A stretch of 33,139 nucleotides of DNA from a virus (Duplodnaviria; Heunggongvirae; Uroviricota; Caudoviricetes): IMG/VR virus record IMGVR_UViG_2703719355_000019, one strand, 5' to 3'. Made by a program: the position numbers and the translations under genes. Shown one piece after another: positions 23,178-32,903 of this stretch; the stretch's first letter is position 1; every line of letters starts with the position of its first letter. The notes under the pieces are model-generated. The model made no database searches. It saw only the letters and a program-made list of their open reading frames with translations, and was not told the origin of the DNA.

Positions 23178-23359
23178 GAGTTTCTCCTGTAAATCTGAGC
23201 CACTGACGGCCCGTAAATAACACCCTGTCAAAGGCACAAAAGCCTTTTGCAGGGCGCTATCCCTTAAGGTGCCTTGTGGTCTGAGTGGACAGGGTAAACG
23301 GTCTGGTGTGGTGGGTACTGCTGGGGGTGTTCAGCACCCCGCGGCAGCGGGGTGATAAA

Positions 23360-23638
23360 TCAGAAGCGGGAAAGGGAATCCGGCGTAATAAGAGGTTTAT
23401 TACAAAGCCGAGCAGAGGTGTTCGCCTTTTCCATCGCTGCGCGCATCTCGTTTTCGCTGGCGATGATGTCAGCAATGGCACACTGCAACGCTTCTTCCTG
23501 AACAACCATATCCGGTTGTTCGGCCATTCGGTTTAACTGACTGGCCAAATTTTTCATATAAGCAAAGCGACGTCCGGCAGCATCCCGGGCCTGCTCTGAG
23601 TAGGCCGTATACTCGCCAAGTGCCATATAGTTGGTCAT
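23360..23638 (-). CDS. hypothetical protein (92 aa)
   Basis: Start at ATG 23638, preceded by AGGAG with a 6-nt spacer; the longer track ORF would start within the upstream terminator. Confidence 0.55.
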   Translation of the reverse strand: MTNYMALGEYTAYSEQARDAAGRRFAYMKNLASQLNRMAEQPDMVVQEEALQCAIADIIASENEMRAAMEKANTSARLCNKPLITPDSLSRF

Positions 23639-23664
23639 AAGTGTCTCCTTTTTTCTGAGGCCCA

Positions 23665-24132
23665 TTAATCAAAAAGCCCCACCTGGGTGGGGCTTTTCAG
23701 CGAAGTCTGTTTTTGTCGTCGGTGTATCAGCTGCCATGCGTACCGGTCTGAAATGCCGTAACGGGGACAGAGCAGTGCCAGCGCCTGCCGGTGTGAGCAT
23801 CCGTCTTTTATATGCTGCTGTAAATCAGCCATAAAACGGGTGTTACGCAGGGCACGTAATGCATGATCGCAACGGGGAATGTAAAACGGAGCACCGCCAA
23901 GAAAGCGGATCAGTTTGTTGATTTCGTCTTCGGTCAGCACATCATGTAACAGGGCATGGACGCCGCCGGTGCGTTCAGCGTGTGCGCCGGTTTTACCGCT
24001 TAACGTCACGCCACCAAAAGAACGGATTAACCGGGTCAGGGCGGGGAAGCCAATCACGCTAATCAGTTGTTGCACGGAGTCGGGCAGCAGTGCCTGCGCA
24101 TCGCGAAGATCTGTTTCACTGAAGGTCTGCAT
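23665..24132 (-). CDS. Mor/C-family transcriptional activator
   Basis: 155-aa ORF with GGAPFYIP motif followed by a C-terminal helix-turn-helix-like segment; located after gemA as in Mu. Confidence 0.8.
   Translation of the reverse strand: MQTFSETDLRDAQALLPDSVQQLISVIGFPALTRLIRSFGGVTLSGKTGAHAERTGGVHALLHDVLTEDEINKLIRFLGGAPFYIPRCDHALRALRNTRFMADLQQHIKDGCSHRQALALLCPRYGISDRYAWQLIHRRQKQTSLKSPTQVGLFD
23671..23697. terminator. bidirectional intrinsic terminator at the 3' end of the Mor-family gene
   Basis: A5-GCCCCACC-TG-GGTGGGGC-T4; perfect GC-rich stem flanked by an A-run and a T-run. Confidence 0.6.
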
Positions 24133-24194: not shown

Positions 24195-24220
24195 CAAAAA
24201 AGCCCCTGCAAGGCAGAGGC
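24195..24220 (-). terminator. intrinsic terminator downstream of gemA-like gene
   Basis: Minus-strand RNA GCCUCUGC-CUU-GCAGGGGC (8-bp stem with one G-U pair) followed by U6; begins 8 nt after the gemA-like stop. Confidence 0.6.
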
Positions 24221-24227
24221 TGATTCT

Positions 24228-24891: not shown

Positions 24892-24958
24892 AATGACCAA
24901 AACATCACTTTTGGCAGACCAAAACACATGTTTTGGTCTGCGTTTGATTACTGTTCAA

Positions 24959-25185: not shown

Positions 25186-25596
25186 TCAGTATGTGAAATA
25201 GACAGTTGCCACACCGTTATAGTGGTCAAACGACACAGCGTTTACCTCATAACTGGCCGGGAGCTTCGAGCCAAGAACGTATCCGGGCCACGTTTTCCAT
25301 GGAATTTCTCTGCTCTCACTGTCGCCATATACCGTACATCCCAGTGAGCCTACAGCTTCATAAGAACGCTTACCGCACGTTATGAACCCCAGATGTTGCT
25401 TACTGCCCTTAACAGAAATCGGGAGAGCACTGGCTGATGCGTTAGCAGCGTCCCGCTCCTGTTGGCTTGCGATATTCGCAGAGTTTGCAGCAGCTACAGC
25501 AGCTGTGGTCGCAGCGGTAGATGCCACAATAACTGCTGAAGCCTGCGCCTGTTGGGTAATTGTCAGCAATGCCGCCACAAAAATCATTTTCTTCAC
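25186..25596 (-). CDS. secreted protein with N-terminal signal peptide
   Basis: GTG start at 25596 preceded by AGGAGG with a 6-nt spacer; MKKMIFVAALLTITQQAQA signal-like N-terminus; mature part contains two Cys. Confidence 0.7.
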   Translation of the reverse strand: MKKMIFVAALLTITQQAQASAVIVASTAATTAAVAAANSANIASQQERDAANASASALPISVKGSKQHLGFITCGKRSYEAVGSLGCTVYGDSESREIPWKTWPGYVLGSKLPASYEVNAVSFDHYNGVATVYFTY

Positions 25597-25608: not shown

Positions 25609-25785
25609 TTACATACCGTGATTTTTCCTGCGGTTTTGCGCCGCGCTGGGCTTTTTGCAACAACTGTGCCCCATAACCCCTAAAAACCCTGTCAACCTCA
25701 ACCGTCTGTTACTAATCCTCACCCACCGCCAGACATCAAAGCCGTTTCTGCGAGCTAACAGAATTTTTGCCTTACGGTTTTTCAT
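25609..25785 (-). CDS. small basic protein B (58 aa), tandem paralogue
   Basis: ATG 25785-25783 overlaps the stop of paralogue A (ATGA); translation MKNRKAKILLARR..KKPSAAQNRRKNHGM. Confidence 0.45.
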   Translation of the reverse strand: MKNRKAKILLARRNGFDVWRWVRISNRRLRLTGFLGVMGHSCCKKPSAAQNRRKNHGM

Positions 25786-25958
25786 CGTACTGCGTACCCT
25801 TTATTCCGCCTGTTCTGTGACGCAGTAGGCTTACGCTTTGCGGCAAAAGCCACCTGACCAAATGGATGGAGTACCGCTATCTTATGGTTGCTAATAACCA
25901 GCTCCACCACACGCACAGGTCGCTGTAAAAGAAGGCGTTTTGCTTTACGGTTTTTCAT
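25782..25958 (-). CDS. small basic protein A (58 aa), tandem paralogue
   Basis: ATG 25958-25956 preceded by GAGGAAGG; translation MKNRKAKRLLLQR..KRKPTASQNRRNKGYAVR; the 112-aa track ORF 26120..25782 is an overextension. Confidence 0.5.
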   Translation of the reverse strand: MKNRKAKRLLLQRPVRVVELVISNHKIAVLHPFGQVAFAAKRKPTASQNRRNKGYAVR

Positions 25959-25959
25959 C

Positions 25960-26151
25960 TCATCCTTCCTCGCTTTTTGCAGTTTCAAACCACGCATCCT
26001 GCCCCACAACATCATCACCACATGGTGGTTCAGATTCTGAATAGCGACCGGCCCACCAGTATTTACCATTACGATGCTTTGCTGTGCCGCAACGCTGGCA
26101 TATGAAAATTGACCCATCACGCTGATAATGATGGATGTGCTCGTTACTCAT
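25960..26151 (-). CDS. small Cys/His-containing protein (63 aa), possible zinc-binding
   Basis: ORF with CQRCG..H motif; start overlaps upstream gene by 4 nt. Confidence 0.5.
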   Translation of the reverse strand: MSNEHIHHYQRDGSIFICQRCGTAKHRNGKYWWAGRYSESEPPCGDDVVGQDAWFETAKSEEG

Positions 26152-26372
26152 TGTGCAGCCTCCTGTTTTGCCACTTTAAACGCCCGTAACATCGGAACCG
26201 TTTTACCGGTGATGACGGTTTTCATTAAAAGGCCGCCGCCACTCTGGTGGCGCACTTCAGGAGCAACAAACAGCGCCGCATCCACAACCCGACAATAGCG
26301 ACGGAACTCCCAGAACCAGCAGGTAACAATGATTTTTGCGGTGACTCCGTAGTCATAAAATTCAATATTCAT
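26148..26372 (-). CDS. hypothetical protein (74 aa)
   Basis: ORF translationally coupled to both neighbours by 4-nt overlaps. Confidence 0.5.
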   Translation of the reverse strand: MNIEFYDYGVTAKIIVTCWFWEFRRYCRVVDAALFVAPEVRHQSGGGLLMKTVITGKTVPMLRAFKVAKQEAAQ

Positions 26373-26596
26373 TTGCAGTTAAACCTTCTTTTGTGACGTT
26401 CTACAGCGGCTTTCATGGCGTTGTGCACGGTTCTTTTAATAATCCGGCGTCCCGCACTGTCATAGAACCGCCACCGGGAAGCCTCCGGATATTTAGGGAA
26501 CTCAACCGCCGCGCTGTCGTCATTCATCCTGTATTCGTGGCGTTCTCCGGGCGGCTGGTATATTGCTTCGGTAACACTGAGAAGTTTAAAAGCCAT
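26369..26596 (-). CDS. hypothetical protein (75 aa)
   Basis: ORF starting 3 nt after the stop of the upstream 237-aa gene. Confidence 0.5.
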   Translation of the reverse strand: MAFKLLSVTEAIYQPPGERHEYRMNDDSAAVEFPKYPEASRWRFYDSAGRRIIKRTVHNAMKAAVERHKRRFNCK

Positions 26597-26598
26597 CG

Positions 26599-27312: not shown

Positions 27313-27694
27313 TGTCTACTCCCTCCAACAACGTGGTGATGAAATGTCCAGCCATTACTCCGGCATCACGATAAGCGCATCGTGTTTTGCTTTCTGATTG
27401 TTTACGCCGGGGAACGGAATAAGCTGATGCAAACATCTCCGCCCTGAATTGCTGCATTGTCAGGACTTTCAATTGCAGGAGACGCTCTTCATCGCTGCAT
27501 ACTGTGCTCATTAATCCATCAAGGATGACATTAAAAGCCCGGTATACCGGGTCATCTTTTGTTCGTTTTGTCAGGGCCACAGCACTGATTATTGACAATG
27601 CGCACTCAAGCTTTTTCAGCTCTGATAAGTTGTCGTTCTTTATTTCTGCATTTTTATTTAGCCATTCAACAGGTGACCAGACTTTATCTTTCAT
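27299..27694 (-). CDS. hypothetical cargo protein 2 (131 aa) behind duplicated leader
   Basis: ATG 27694 preceded by AAGGGGA; N-terminus MKDKVW shared with cargo protein 1, rest unrelated. Confidence 0.6.
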   Translation of the reverse strand: MKDKVWSPVEWLNKNAEIKNDNLSELKKLECALSIISAVALTKRTKDDPVYRAFNVILDGLMSTVCSDEERLLQLKVLTMQQFRAEMFASAYSVPRRKQSESKTRCAYRDAGVMAGHFITTLLEGVDNEQK

Positions 27695-29481: not shown

Positions 29482-29697
29482 TTAATTTGTGTTATGTGCG
29501 CGAGGCGCAACGTTTTCAGAAAAAAGATTCACGCCGTTATAGTCATTTCTGAGCGTTTCCTTGATAACATCATGTAATCTTGTTGCCACCTGAAACTCCT
29601 TTTCGGAAGCTCCGTCCTTCGAATAACTCCCCGTGGTCTGGGTTAATACACAGCCTTTTTCATCGGTATAGATAATTACTTCTAACTTAACCGCCAT
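29482..29697 (-). CDS. hypothetical protein (71 aa)
   Basis: ORF in the early operon downstream of B. Confidence 0.5.
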   Translation of the reverse strand: MAVKLEVIIYTDEKGCVLTQTTGSYSKDGASEKEFQVATRLHDVIKETLRNDYNGVNLFSENVAPRAHNTN

Positions 29698-29709
29698 TCT
29701 GATTTCCTC

Positions 29710-29949
29710 TCATTGCCATACGACGGTGCAGCCGTCGATACAGGACGTTTTAACCACGCGGCGCAGGCCGCTGAATGTCTGGATGATTTCCGTTACCGGC
29801 CATACAGGACCACCCACGGGCGGGCAGGCATAAACCACAGGTAAACGGTGATGTTGTCCCGTTACACGACCACCAGTGGTGTGGATGGCCACACGGGCAC
29901 GGGAACGGACGGCGTTAATGGTCTGCTTGTCCATCGTCTTGTTCTCCAT
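29710..29949 (-). CDS. hypothetical protein (79 aa), first gene after B
   Basis: ATG overlaps the B stop (TGATG); Cys-containing. Confidence 0.5.
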   Translation of the reverse strand: MENKTMDKQTINAVRSRARVAIHTTGGRVTGQHHRLPVVYACPPVGGPVWPVTEIIQTFSGLRRVVKTSCIDGCTVVWQ

Positions 29950-30842
29950 CAGTGAATTAACATTTCTGCGAATTTATCAATGGCCTGCACACTGACCGGC
30001 GCATCGCTGATATCACAAATCCGGTACACACCACGCGCCAGCTTGAACAGACGGCGGGCATTACCCAGCGAACGTGTATAAAGCGCCTCGCTGATTTCCG
30101 GCTCTGCTGCTTCCGGCATCAACCCGGTAGCTATCTGGTTAAAATCTTCCTGCGACAACGTATCGCCCAGGTTAAGCGCCAGCGCCACGCGGCTGTATAA
30201 CTGGGCGAACTCACCACGACGCCCCTTGAGGTTAATCAGAAGGCGAGGCATACCCGCCAGAACAACCCCGATACCCGCTTTGTCATGCAGACGGCGCAGA
30301 ACCTCCAGGGCGCGATAGGGGAGCAGTTCAGCCTCGTCCACCATCAGCAGACGACCGGAATCACGCAGTTCGCGCACACAGGCATCTATCAGTTCGTGAA
30401 TGTTGCCGCGAACCTTTACCCCCAGCTGGCGGCACAACTCCTCAAGCAGTGTTCTGGCTGTATAGCCCGGGTCAGCCTCAATCAGGACCGCATCCCGGTT
30501 TCTGGCGGCGTATTCACGCAGAATCATTGTTTTGCCAAGACCTGCTGCGCCATACAGCACACAGATTTCACATTCCAGGTGAGCGTAGGCCAGCACCTCC
30601 AGTCCTTTGGCAGTCATACTGGTGGTCACAAACTTTGCTTTAATACGGCGGCTGTTTTCCTTTTCCCGCTCACGGGTCACAAAGGCAGAAATGCGTTCTT
30701 CAATATCAGCCATATCGCCCTGATATTTACCCTGTAAATACTGGCTGATAACGGCGCTGCTACGCCCAATGGCACGGGCGACGTGGGTCTGCGTATAGCC
30801 GCGACGGGCCATTACGTCATTTAATTGCGTAATTAAACTCAT
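29949..30842 (-). CDS. B: DNA transposition ATPase (MuB-like, AAA+)
   Basis: 297-aa ORF with Walker A GAAGLGKT; directly downstream of the transposase. Confidence 0.9.
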   Translation of the reverse strand: MSLITQLNDVMARRGYTQTHVARAIGRSSAVISQYLQGKYQGDMADIEERISAFVTREREKENSRRIKAKFVTTSMTAKGLEVLAYAHLECEICVLYGAAGLGKTMILREYAARNRDAVLIEADPGYTARTLLEELCRQLGVKVRGNIHELIDACVRELRDSGRLLMVDEAELLPYRALEVLRRLHDKAGIGVVLAGMPRLLINLKGRRGEFAQLYSRVALALNLGDTLSQEDFNQIATGLMPEAAEPEISEALYTRSLGNARRLFKLARGVYRICDISDAPVSVQAIDKFAEMLIH

Positions 30843-30860
30843 AATTAAATACCTTTTAAA

Positions 30861-32903
30861 TTAACGGTTGTTTGTGCCGTTTTTCTTTAAATTGCGCTCG
30901 CGTTCAGATGCGAATAAATAAAGTTCTTCTTTTTCCTTTTTCTCCGGGCGCTCCAGTCCATATCCCAGATTAAAGTCAGGCTTCTGCGTAATAGCCGGAG
31001 TAAGCTCGCGTTTAGCCTCTTCGATTTTCTGCGTGGCCCGTGCAATGCGGCCCCTGACGCGTTTCTCCAGTTTTTGTTCGATAACTGGTTTAGCGAAGGC
31101 ATCAACCTTGTTACCGTTCCAGATGGCATCGCAGATATAAGAGCCATCAGCCCGCCGGACAATGACGCTGTTTGCATCATGAATATCGTAACTGACCCTG
31201 ACTTCATTCCCGTGCTCTGCGGCCAGCTCATACGAGTAATAAATATTGTTGAATAACTGAATTTCCCCGCGAAATGTTTTGCGCGTCACTTCCGGCCTGA
31301 ACATTTCATGCAGTTCTTCCGGCGACAGGAAATCAATTTCAACATTCTGCTCTTTTATCAGTTTCCGGCGATACGCTGCCGGGCTGTAATGCTCGCCATC
31401 CTCTTTGCGAGGAAGGCTGCTGTGTGGCCGGTTGTTATAGCGTCTGACCTCCAGCTCTATGGCTGCCATCAGTTGCTCAAAGGTAGGGATTTCATCCCTC
31501 GCCTTAACCTGCCGTTTTGTCAGCTCTTTCCCTTTGTGGGTGGCCTTAATGGCTGACTGCATAATCCGTTGCTGCATCATTACGGTTTCCTTGTCTGCAT
31601 CCCTTGCGCAGTACGTCTGGAAACTCAGGGCCACGTCTTTGGGTATTTCCTTGTTAACCCTTTCAATCACCCCGCGCCCCTGCGGGTTACCTGGTATCCC
31701 CGTGTGATGTTCCACACCCAGACGGGGCAGAATCCCGGTAATATCGGCATCAAGCACCCGGTTTTTTTCGCCGCCCCCGTTATCGGAGTAATAAATCAGC
31801 GGTATCCCGTGCTGTGCCATGCCGTAACGTAACGCATCAGCAACGGCTATCACGTTCTCCGACAGGGACAGTGACCAGCCCACAATAAAGCGTTGTCCTG
31901 CATCCATAACCAGCGTCACTTCTGGCCGGAAAATATTGCCGGTCAGTGGGTTAAACGCGGTCATTTTCATACAGTGACCATCCCCGACCCATACCGCATT
32001 AACCGGTAATGTGCTCCAGTCGCGCCGCACAAAAGGATTGAGCGAACGCCAGGCTGAACCGGTGGAGCGGAAACGTTCTTTAACAATCACCGGAACGCTG
32101 CTTAACACCCGTCTGACTGCGTGAACTGAAGGCAGTGCTGCCAGCATTCCCGTATCATTCGCGTGTTTTTCATGCCACCAGGCTGAAAACTCGCGATACG
32201 CATATTCAACGGTCGGTCGCTTCCATGAACGATAGAACATAAAGAAATCGCTCAACCACCAGACCTGCTCCCACGGTGTTCCCTTATGATGACCGGGAGC
32301 CAGTAACGCCAGTAACTGATTGGCATCACCGCGCGCCATCACCCAGCTGGAGTACCAGCTATCCAGGCTGCCGGTGCTGACACCGGTTCGCTTTCCCTGA
32401 CGTGCATTTGCAGTATTAGCTGCTTCGATAATGCGGTCAGGTAACGCCCCCATGCGCACACCATCAACGATGTGCTTTAAAGCGGCCTTCCTGGTCATTC
32501 CGGCATACTCGCGCAGCTTATGCACTTCAGTAGCCAGCAATATCCGCGCATCAGCGATGGCCTTTTGCTTGTCAGTCAGTGCCTGAACTTCACGTAATGC
32601 CAGTTCCGGGCATTTGACCATCACCTCCAGTTCATCGCGAACGGCGACGTTTTTAACTGCCTTCTGCTCAACCACGGCGGGCAGTTGCGTATCTTCCAGA
32701 ACCTGATGGGTCAGGCGCTTACGTAAAACTTTCTGCGCTTCAGCGGGCAGGCAGTCGATGTGATACTCGAATGCTTTGGTGCCTTCGCGCTTGCGCTTCC
32801 ATTCCGGGTGCGTCTCTGTGATCCGATTGAGCGTCCAGCGCACCCCCTGAACTGTACCGGGCAAACCAGGAAGACCGGCCAGCTCATTGGCTGAATAAAA
32901 CAT
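30861..32903 (-). CDS. A: DDE transposase (MuA-like)
   Basis: 680-aa ORF between the ner-like and B-like genes; size and position match MuA. Confidence 0.9.
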   Translation of the reverse strand: MFYSANELAGLPGLPGTVQGVRWTLNRITETHPEWKRKREGTKAFEYHIDCLPAEAQKVLRKRLTHQVLEDTQLPAVVEQKAVKNVAVRDELEVMVKCPELALREVQALTDKQKAIADARILLATEVHKLREYAGMTRKAALKHIVDGVRMGALPDRIIEAANTANARQGKRTGVSTGSLDSWYSSWVMARGDANQLLALLAPGHHKGTPWEQVWWLSDFFMFYRSWKRPTVEYAYREFSAWWHEKHANDTGMLAALPSVHAVRRVLSSVPVIVKERFRSTGSAWRSLNPFVRRDWSTLPVNAVWVGDGHCMKMTAFNPLTGNIFRPEVTLVMDAGQRFIVGWSLSLSENVIAVADALRYGMAQHGIPLIYYSDNGGGEKNRVLDADITGILPRLGVEHHTGIPGNPQGRGVIERVNKEIPKDVALSFQTYCARDADKETVMMQQRIMQSAIKATHKGKELTKRQVKARDEIPTFEQLMAAIELEVRRYNNRPHSSLPRKEDGEHYSPAAYRRKLIKEQNVEIDFLSPEELHEMFRPEVTRKTFRGEIQLFNNIYYSYELAAEHGNEVRVSYDIHDANSVIVRRADGSYICDAIWNGNKVDAFAKPVIEQKLEKRVRGRIARATQKIEEAKRELTPAITQKPDFNLGYGLERPEKKEKEELYLFASERERNLKKNGTNNR

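Follow-up and report, generated by a model that had tools for sequence, protein, structure and literature searches.

Can two open reading frames (ORFs) of 58 codons, lying back to back in the early region of a Mu-like prophage, be regarded as genuine genes, and if so, what might their products do? The question is raised by a 33,139-nt stretch of caudoviral DNA (IMG/VR record IMGVR_UViG_2703719355_000019), which as a whole is referred to here as the window. An original prediction, made from the letters of this DNA alone, held that two adjacent ORFs, termed ORF A and ORF B, encode paralogous and strongly basic proteins that had gone unrecognised. Here we show that both ORFs are genuine protein-coding genes, paralogous to each other and under purifying selection in the proposed frame. 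We also show that they belong to a known family of phage proteins, and we discuss which functions the sequence, distribution and predicted structure of this family would be compatible with.

Results

The locus and its prophage

E. coli NZ_CM135183 contains an annotated prophage that is collinear with the window (99.6% identity over the 801 nt compared) and is referred to below as the RefSeq twin. The layout derived from the annotation of this twin is that of an almost complete Mu-like element (Table 1). ORF A and ORF B are located in the Mu-type semi-essential early region, with the transposase and B genes on one side and gemA and mor on the other, and they are on the strand of the early operon. 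No promoter or terminator was predicted adjacent to the pair. The early-operon strand together with the lack of a promoter of their own suggests that the two genes would be transcribed from the early promoter upon induction, and not in the lysogen.

The start and stop codons of the two minus-strand ORFs could be read from the sequence at the positions originally proposed. Both proteins start with MKNRKAK and have the ISN and KP(T/S)A(S/A)QNRR motifs in common, and the different codons used for conserved residues (P cct/ccc, Q cag/caa, R agg/cgc and R cgg/agg) are visible in the two sequences. The extreme basicity attributed to both was borne out by their composition: each has a pI of 12.0, with 15-16 K+R and 1 D+E. 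In a single BLASTP comparison, the two proteins were 43% identical over 53 aa (E 2e-9). The similarity of their DNA is limited to a 22-nt direct repeat that spans the start codons, and the remainder has diverged, which points to an old paralogy and not to a recent duplication. ORF A is preceded by the expected Shine-Dalgarno sequence, with 5 nt between the end of GAGGAAGG (25971-25964) and the ATG. The overlap of the two ORFs by the bases ATGA is also present, and is an arrangement from which translational coupling would be expected.

Table 1. Positions of the features discussed in the text, in coordinates of the window. Features marked "RefSeq twin" are taken from the annotation of the near-identical prophage.
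Feature	Position	Strand	Description
ORF A	25782..25958	minus	58 aa (MKNRKAKRLLLQRPVRVVELVISNHKIAVLHPFGQVAFAAKRKPTASQNRRNKGYAVR); ATG at 25958, TGA at 25784-25782; PHROG 1380, A-type
ORF B	25609..25785	minus	58 aa (MKNRKAKILLARRNGFDVWRWVRISNRRLRLTGFLGVMGHSCCKKPSAAQNRRKNHGM); ATG at 25785-25783, TAA at 25611-25609; PHROG 1380, B1-type
ATGA overlap, ORF A stop/ORF B start	25782..25785	minus	four bases common to both ORFs
Shine-Dalgarno-like sequence of ORF A (GAGGAAGG)	25964..25971	minus	inside the final codons of the upstream 63-aa ORF
22-nt direct repeat, copy 1 (GATGAAAAACCGTAARGCAAAA)	25938..25959	minus	spans ORF A start; repeat family D1, 95% identity
22-nt direct repeat, copy 2	25765..25786	minus	spans ORF B start
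Upstream Cys/His-containing 63-aa ORF (MSNEHIHHYQRDGSIFICQRCGTAKH…)	25960..26151	minus	PHROG 7369, full length, E 1e-42
Downstream 136-aa gene	25186..25596	minus	GTG start; AGGAGG at 25608-25603; PHROG 8805
Repressor	32870 onwards		RefSeq twin
Mu-type transposase	30409-32451		RefSeq twin; ner-like HTH gene listed between repressor and transposase
AAA ATPase (B)	29497-30390		RefSeq twin; string of small early genes listed next, then gp16/GemA
Mor	23204-23671		RefSeq twin; lysis, terminase, head and tail genes listed after

The gene directly downstream of the pair was described as encoding a secreted protein. This agrees with the N-terminus of its 136-aa product, which, read from the sequence by eye, resembles a Sec signal peptide (MKKMIFVAALLTITQQAQA|S). 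The families to which the neighbouring genes belong are all labelled "unknown function" in PHROG, and the context therefore provides no functional lead.

Several other features of the early region were observed. A 75-aa ORF on the minus strand (MAFKLLSVTEAIYQPPGERHEY…; 26369-26596) matches PHROG 9400 over its full length (E 4e-39); it falls within a gap in the annotation of the twin (26373-26598), and is probably another missed small early gene. The early operon is otherwise unidirectional, but is opposed by a single RefSeq hypothetical gene on the plus strand (27401-27661), which could be an inserted accessory gene (moron). Strong terminator-like hairpins were predicted at 24914-24941 on the plus strand (12 pairs) and at 24201-24221 on the minus strand (9 pairs). 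The latter is located on the early strand just upstream of mor, and a Mu-type early transcript is expected to end at about this position.

The start of ORF A and the annotation of the pair

The two ORFs had been reported as missed by the ORF track. This is a matter of thresholds, and public annotation already has both. ORF B is 58 aa long, and in the mechanical ORF list ORF A is hidden within a single 112-aa ORF that starts with GTG (25782..26120). In the near-identical genome of the RefSeq twin, PGAP has called a 111-aa CDS (25782-26117) in place of the 58-aa ORF A, and the 63-aa ORF upstream (25960-26151) has no annotation there because ORF A was stretched across it in another frame. These two gene models would imply that a GTG near 26117-26120 opens a protein of 111-112 aa, of which ORF A is only the C-terminal half, and that neither a separate 58-aa gene nor a 63-aa gene exists. 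We consider this extremely unlikely for the following reasons. Firstly, the PHROG 1380 profile begins at M1 of MKNRKAK, and aligns with the long form only from its residue 55, where this sequence starts. Secondly, the competing 63-aa ORF is itself a full-length match to another family, PHROG 7369. Thirdly, the Mu-like prophages of STEC313 and UMNF18 have a different gene upstream of an intact ORF A, and in these prophages the extension frame contains two stop codons 7-8 codons before the ATG. Fourthly, the homology with other phages begins exactly at the ATG of ORF A, which, moreover, is preceded by a good Shine-Dalgarno sequence. Judged by these comparisons of sequences, ORF A starts at the ATG of the 58-aa form, and the 111-aa model of RefSeq is wrong. 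As ORF A is not annotated in the STEC313 and UMNF18 RefSeq genomes either, the sense that something had been missed is fair in the case of this ORF.

The view that the two genes had not been recognised did not hold, however. The exact proteins encoded by ORF A and ORF B are both deposited at NCBI as "hypothetical protein", that of ORF A on 58 contigs and that of ORF B in RefSeq as WP_370926431.1 (hypothetical protein). In addition, their family exists as PHROG 1380, and a tandem pair was noticed previously, since the record of phage phiV10 remarks on the similarity of the adjacent p50 and p51. The family of ORF A and ORF B is thus already catalogued.

The annotation of other members is uneven. 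In phage 933W (locus L003, AF125520) a B2-type homologue at 2004-2192, between L0069 and L0068, is without annotation, and in VT2-Sakai (locus L084) a B2-type homologue at 1222-1689 is annotated as an over-extended 155-aa orf8. PHROGs 12350 and 9263 seem to have been built from over-extended or read-through forms of PHROG 1380. A correct gene model of 58-62 aa would help to resolve this inconsistent annotation of PHROG 1380 members.

Membership and distribution of PHROG 1380

ORF A matches the 62-position profile of PHROG 1380 with its residues 1-58 (E 2.1e-22), and ORF B with its residues 1-57 (E 3.4e-27). All three motifs of the family are present in both proteins, in register with 58 other members. 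PHROG 1380 is labelled "unknown function", has "VT2-Sa p08-like" as its other name, and comprises small (55-68 aa), very basic proteins.

A tblastn search, one of the checks that had been proposed, detected the family in 146 phage records. The carriers include Stx lambdoid phages such as 933W and VT2-Sakai, the P1-like RCS47, phiV10, the Salmonella phages Sasha and Sergei, and the virulent phage Av-05; Mu itself was not found by name in the summary of these hits, and the family HMM found no member in the Rac prophage of K-12. The family was confirmed in 269 IMG/VR stretches. A DNA search with an 801-nt query, which spans also the flanking genes, gave matches in at least 443 of the 5426 complete E. 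coli genomes, and about half of the matching places were on plasmids. A profile search yielded 184 clusters at 90% identity, from Escherichia, Salmonella, Citrobacter, Enterobacter, Klebsiella and Phytobacter. Only 40 representatives at 50% identity were present among 1.84 billion proteins, which indicates that PHROG 1380 is a narrow but real family. No relative was found in the GTDB species-representative genomes scanned, which fits with the family being confined to a few enterobacterial species.

Conserved blocks, allele types and tandem pairs

Alignments of 25 and of 60 members revealed three blocks of conservation, and the stretches between them are variable and mostly hydrophobic. The first block is M-(K/N)-N-R-K-A-(K/R)-x-L-L, the second (I/V/L)-S-N-(R/H)-(R/K), and the third K-x-(S/T)-A-(A/S)-Q-N-R-(W/R)-K-N-H, with K[PRN][ST]A[AS]QNR[WR] as the membership pattern. 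Five allele types can be distinguished (A, B1, B2, B3 and C), and most of the differences between them lie in the region of the predicted sheet.

Tandem pairs with an ATGA junction make up 22-24 of the 87 occurrences, the higher figure including two extra pairs in loci L007 and L008. The 4-nt overlap was found in every tandem pair elsewhere (e.g. 2002-2178/2175-2363 in locus L002 and 3001-3183/3180-3371 in locus L030). The pairs are of the types A+B1 (the window, STEC313 and UMNF18), A+B2 (RCS47) and B1+C (phiV10), and, judging from the coordinates of adjacent hits, the pair of TL-2011c is apparently A+C. Wherever the A-type was seen in the loci examined, it was the leading gene of a tandem pair. 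Leading genes always have the tail …QNRR(N/K)KGYAVR, and singletons and second copies usually have the tail …QNRWKNHLRTKGE, whose final codons provide the ribosome-binding site for the gene that follows. The first copy of phiV10 consists of a B1 body with an A-type tail, a chimera that points to recombination within the conserved C-terminal block.

Another small ORF often accompanies the family. Outside the Mu-like phages, the PHROG 1380 member is usually preceded by an ATGA-joined 58-aa ORF that belongs to PHROG 13831 (54 of about 70 other loci; e.g. about 1829-2005 in locus L002, and 1149-1325 in locus L085, which is p49 of phiV10). This ORF, which has an extremely basic tail (…HTGIAAARRAAKRRRRAKR), is annotated in phiV10 and lacks annotation in RCS47. 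It is absent from the window.

Selection on the protein

Conservation of the reading frames in related phages is a key prediction if the two ORFs are genes. The frame was open, with a length of 52-64 aa, in all of the more than 80 loci fetched, and the resulting family sample contained 53 unique DNAs and 39 unique proteins. The dN/dS between allele types, calculated according to NG86, was 0.21-0.49 wherever dS was computable. Between the types of ORF A and ORF B the synonymous sites are saturated (pS 0.70-0.81, with pN 0.43-0.48), and despite this the three protein motifs have been retained. Among the six possible frames, the proposed one had the lowest pN/pS (0.3-0.66) in 10 out of 10 type pairs, and within the ORF the pN/pS is lower at both ends than in the middle. 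The selection on the protein that was originally deduced from the codon differences within the pair is thus found across the members of the family. The constraint is only moderate. Frameshifts in the C-terminal third occur in a few database variants, one of which (P0016) is present on 91 contigs, and variants of this kind indicate that some lineages can do without the gene.

The first 21 nt of the gene are conserved even at synonymous sites, and codons 4 (CGT) and 6 (GCA) are invariant in the 53 unique DNAs. This suggests an additional constraint on the mRNA or the DNA at the start of the gene, and part of the N-terminal "motif" may reflect that constraint rather than one on the protein. The conservation of the 22-nt start repeat at synonymous sites could even be taken to mean that the region is not translated at all and acts only as DNA or RNA, for instance as a repeated recombination "linker" at module boundaries or as a small RNA. 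Chimeric alleles such as that of phiV10, as well as deletion fusions to neighbouring genes, indicate that recombination occurs within the conserved ends, and would be in line with such a role. However, frame and length are preserved in all loci, no other frame shows a pN/pS as low as the proposed one in any comparison, and the C-terminal motif has been retained with different codons. Furthermore, the region folds as RNA no better than shuffled sequence (z-score -0.01), gives no Rfam match at the gathering score and none above chance level at E up to 10, and is not flanked by a promoter or terminator of its own. A role as DNA or RNA alone is, therefore, barely credible.

Mobility of the two-gene unit

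The DNA homology with lambdoid Stx phages, P1-like phage-plasmids and phiV10 extends from the ATG of ORF A to about the stop codon of ORF B, and its boundaries (query positions 242-583/600) coincide with the two ORFs. By this criterion of shared DNA, the two genes together form a mobile accessory cassette. In other genera, members of PHROG 1380 are located in early regions of the lambdoid nin/ea type, next to genes for Ead/Ea22, DUF551 and replication, and they overlap their neighbours by 4 nt.

The virulent phage Av-05 (locus L096, NC_025830; Vequintavirinae) contains a close homologue of the downstream 136-aa protein at 871-1281 (about 83% nt identity). It also has, some 500 bp further downstream (1801-2010), a divergent member of PHROG 1380 with the N-terminal and SNRR motifs and without the SAAQNRW block. 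The co-occurrence of PHROG 8805 and PHROG 1380 in this phage may reflect co-transfer, a functional link or coincidence.

Discussion

What could be the function of these proteins? Homology searches gave no direct answer. Pfam returned no match at E up to 1 for ORF A and ORF B, or at E up to 10 for the 60 members, and the family had no match in NCBIfam, PADLOC, the sequences of the PDB or a fold comparison. Literature searches retrieved no paper on the family, nor was it found in the supplements of the Sakai Ribo-seq study on small genes (PMC5597208). AlphaFold2 modelling based on 60 sequences predicted a helix (residues 4-10), three strands (20-23, 28-32 and 38-43) and a second helix (48-56), at low confidence (mean pLDDT 68, pTM 0.37). 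A run with 13 sequences, which gave one long helix (pLDDT 66), was discarded as uninformative.

In PHROG 1380, polar and basic residues are conserved and the hydrophobic core is variable. This pattern, together with the occurrence of the same motifs in unrelated phages, suggests that the proteins recognise one conserved ligand that is supplied by the host. The ligand would most likely be a nucleic acid, DNA or RNA, and less likely an acidic protein surface. The charge and composition of ORF A and ORF B, their conserved Asn, Arg, Lys, Gln and Ser residues, and the low-confidence model make nucleic-acid binding our best guess. We lean towards the view that ORF A and ORF B, two real genes for diverged PHROG 1380 paralogues that are probably coupled in translation, would act as early-expressed, accessory nucleic-acid-binding proteins. 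A member of the family would then consist of a basic N-terminal arm (NRKAK), a small predicted three-stranded sheet bearing the invariant S-N-(R/H)-(R/K) turn, and a predicted C-terminal helix, K-x-S-A-A-Q-N-R-W-K-N-H. Contacts to the nucleic acid could be made by the arm, by the S-N-R-R turn and by the helix Q-N-R-W-K-N-H. The tandem copies might pair into a heterodimer, or else represent diversified versions of a single binder.

An alternative is that the proteins target a protein of the host or of a competitor. They might be small early factors of host takeover, peptides that inhibit growth, or anti-defence factors docking on an acidic surface. Genes for host takeover, toxicity and anti-defence are known to cluster in the accessory early regions of phages, and the PHROG 1380 genes lie in just such regions, the Mu semi-essential and lambdoid ea/nin regions. 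The presence of a portable unit in many unrelated phages would agree with this alternative too, and a variable middle between conserved ends would fit an adaptable binding surface. On the other hand, no match to any defence-related model or characterised inhibitor was found, the dN/dS is not elevated as would be expected for an arms race (0.3-0.55 in the middle region), and the conserved residues are of the kind that typically contacts nucleic acids. We therefore regard a protein target as rather unlikely.

More speculatively, PHROG 1380 might be an uncharacterised class of phage host-takeover factor, whose invariant Asn, Arg, Lys and Gln residues recognise one conserved host target. Such a target would be a nucleic acid or a nucleoprotein machine, e.g. 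rRNA or the ribosome, tRNA, or a site on the nucleoid, and tandem pairs would form heterodimers with altered specificity. A single conserved target would explain why the same motifs are found in Mu-like, lambdoid, P1-like, epsilon15-like and virulent rV5-like phages. We judge this proposal quite improbable, but if it were true, PHROG 1380 would constitute a new early phage effector; as matters stand, it is one more conserved phage hypothetical protein. The family is of some relevance in either case, as its carriers include Shiga-toxin phages (933W and VT2-Sakai), P1-like phage-plasmids and E. coli prophages.

How, then, does the preferred reading, that of accessory nucleic-acid-binding proteins, compare with known systems? 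HicA mRNA-interferase toxins are about 58 aa long and have an alpha-beta-beta-beta-alpha fold like that of the double-stranded-RNA-binding domain. ORF A and ORF B have the same length and the same predicted order of secondary-structure elements, and the S-N-H of ORF A falls where HicA has its G-S-(N)-H motif. HicA (PF07927) was nevertheless rejected as a relative: there is no Pfam match, hhalign against E. coli HicA gave a probability of 0.5%, the position of the catalytic His in the first strand is occupied by Arg in ORF B and most members, and the neighbouring genes are unrelated small ORFs, with no cognate HicB antitoxin gene adjacent. A three-stranded sheet with a helix and a basic N-terminal arm is also characteristic of certain DNA-binding domains, namely the arm-type domains of tyrosine integrases (the N-domain of lambda Int; HPI integrase, 3jtz) and AP2-like domains, to which ORF A and ORF B show no significant structural or profile similarity; these candidates were likewise rejected.

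With respect to their genomic niche, the two genes can be compared with the small accessory early genes of lambda and Mu, which are well established. NinD, NinE, NinF, NinH, Kil, Gam and GemA resemble ORF A and ORF B in niche (the nin/ea or semi-essential region) and size class, are likewise distributed as a mosaic and likewise expected to be dispensable, but they have no sequence relationship to PHROG 1380. The closest counterparts are the members of the family itself. VT2-Sakai orf8 (VT2-Sap08), phiV10 p50 and p51, RCS47 gp057 and Sasha gp78 have the same length, motifs and charge as ORF A and ORF B, and members elsewhere occupy the same kind of position, in an early accessory region and with 4-nt overlaps with their neighbours. 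The pair in the window differs from them in three respects: the position that in most members holds the Trp of QNRW is occupied by Arg in both copies, the tail of ORF B is short (…KNHGM instead of …KNHLRTKGE), and the pair is harboured by a Mu-like element rather than a lambdoid one.
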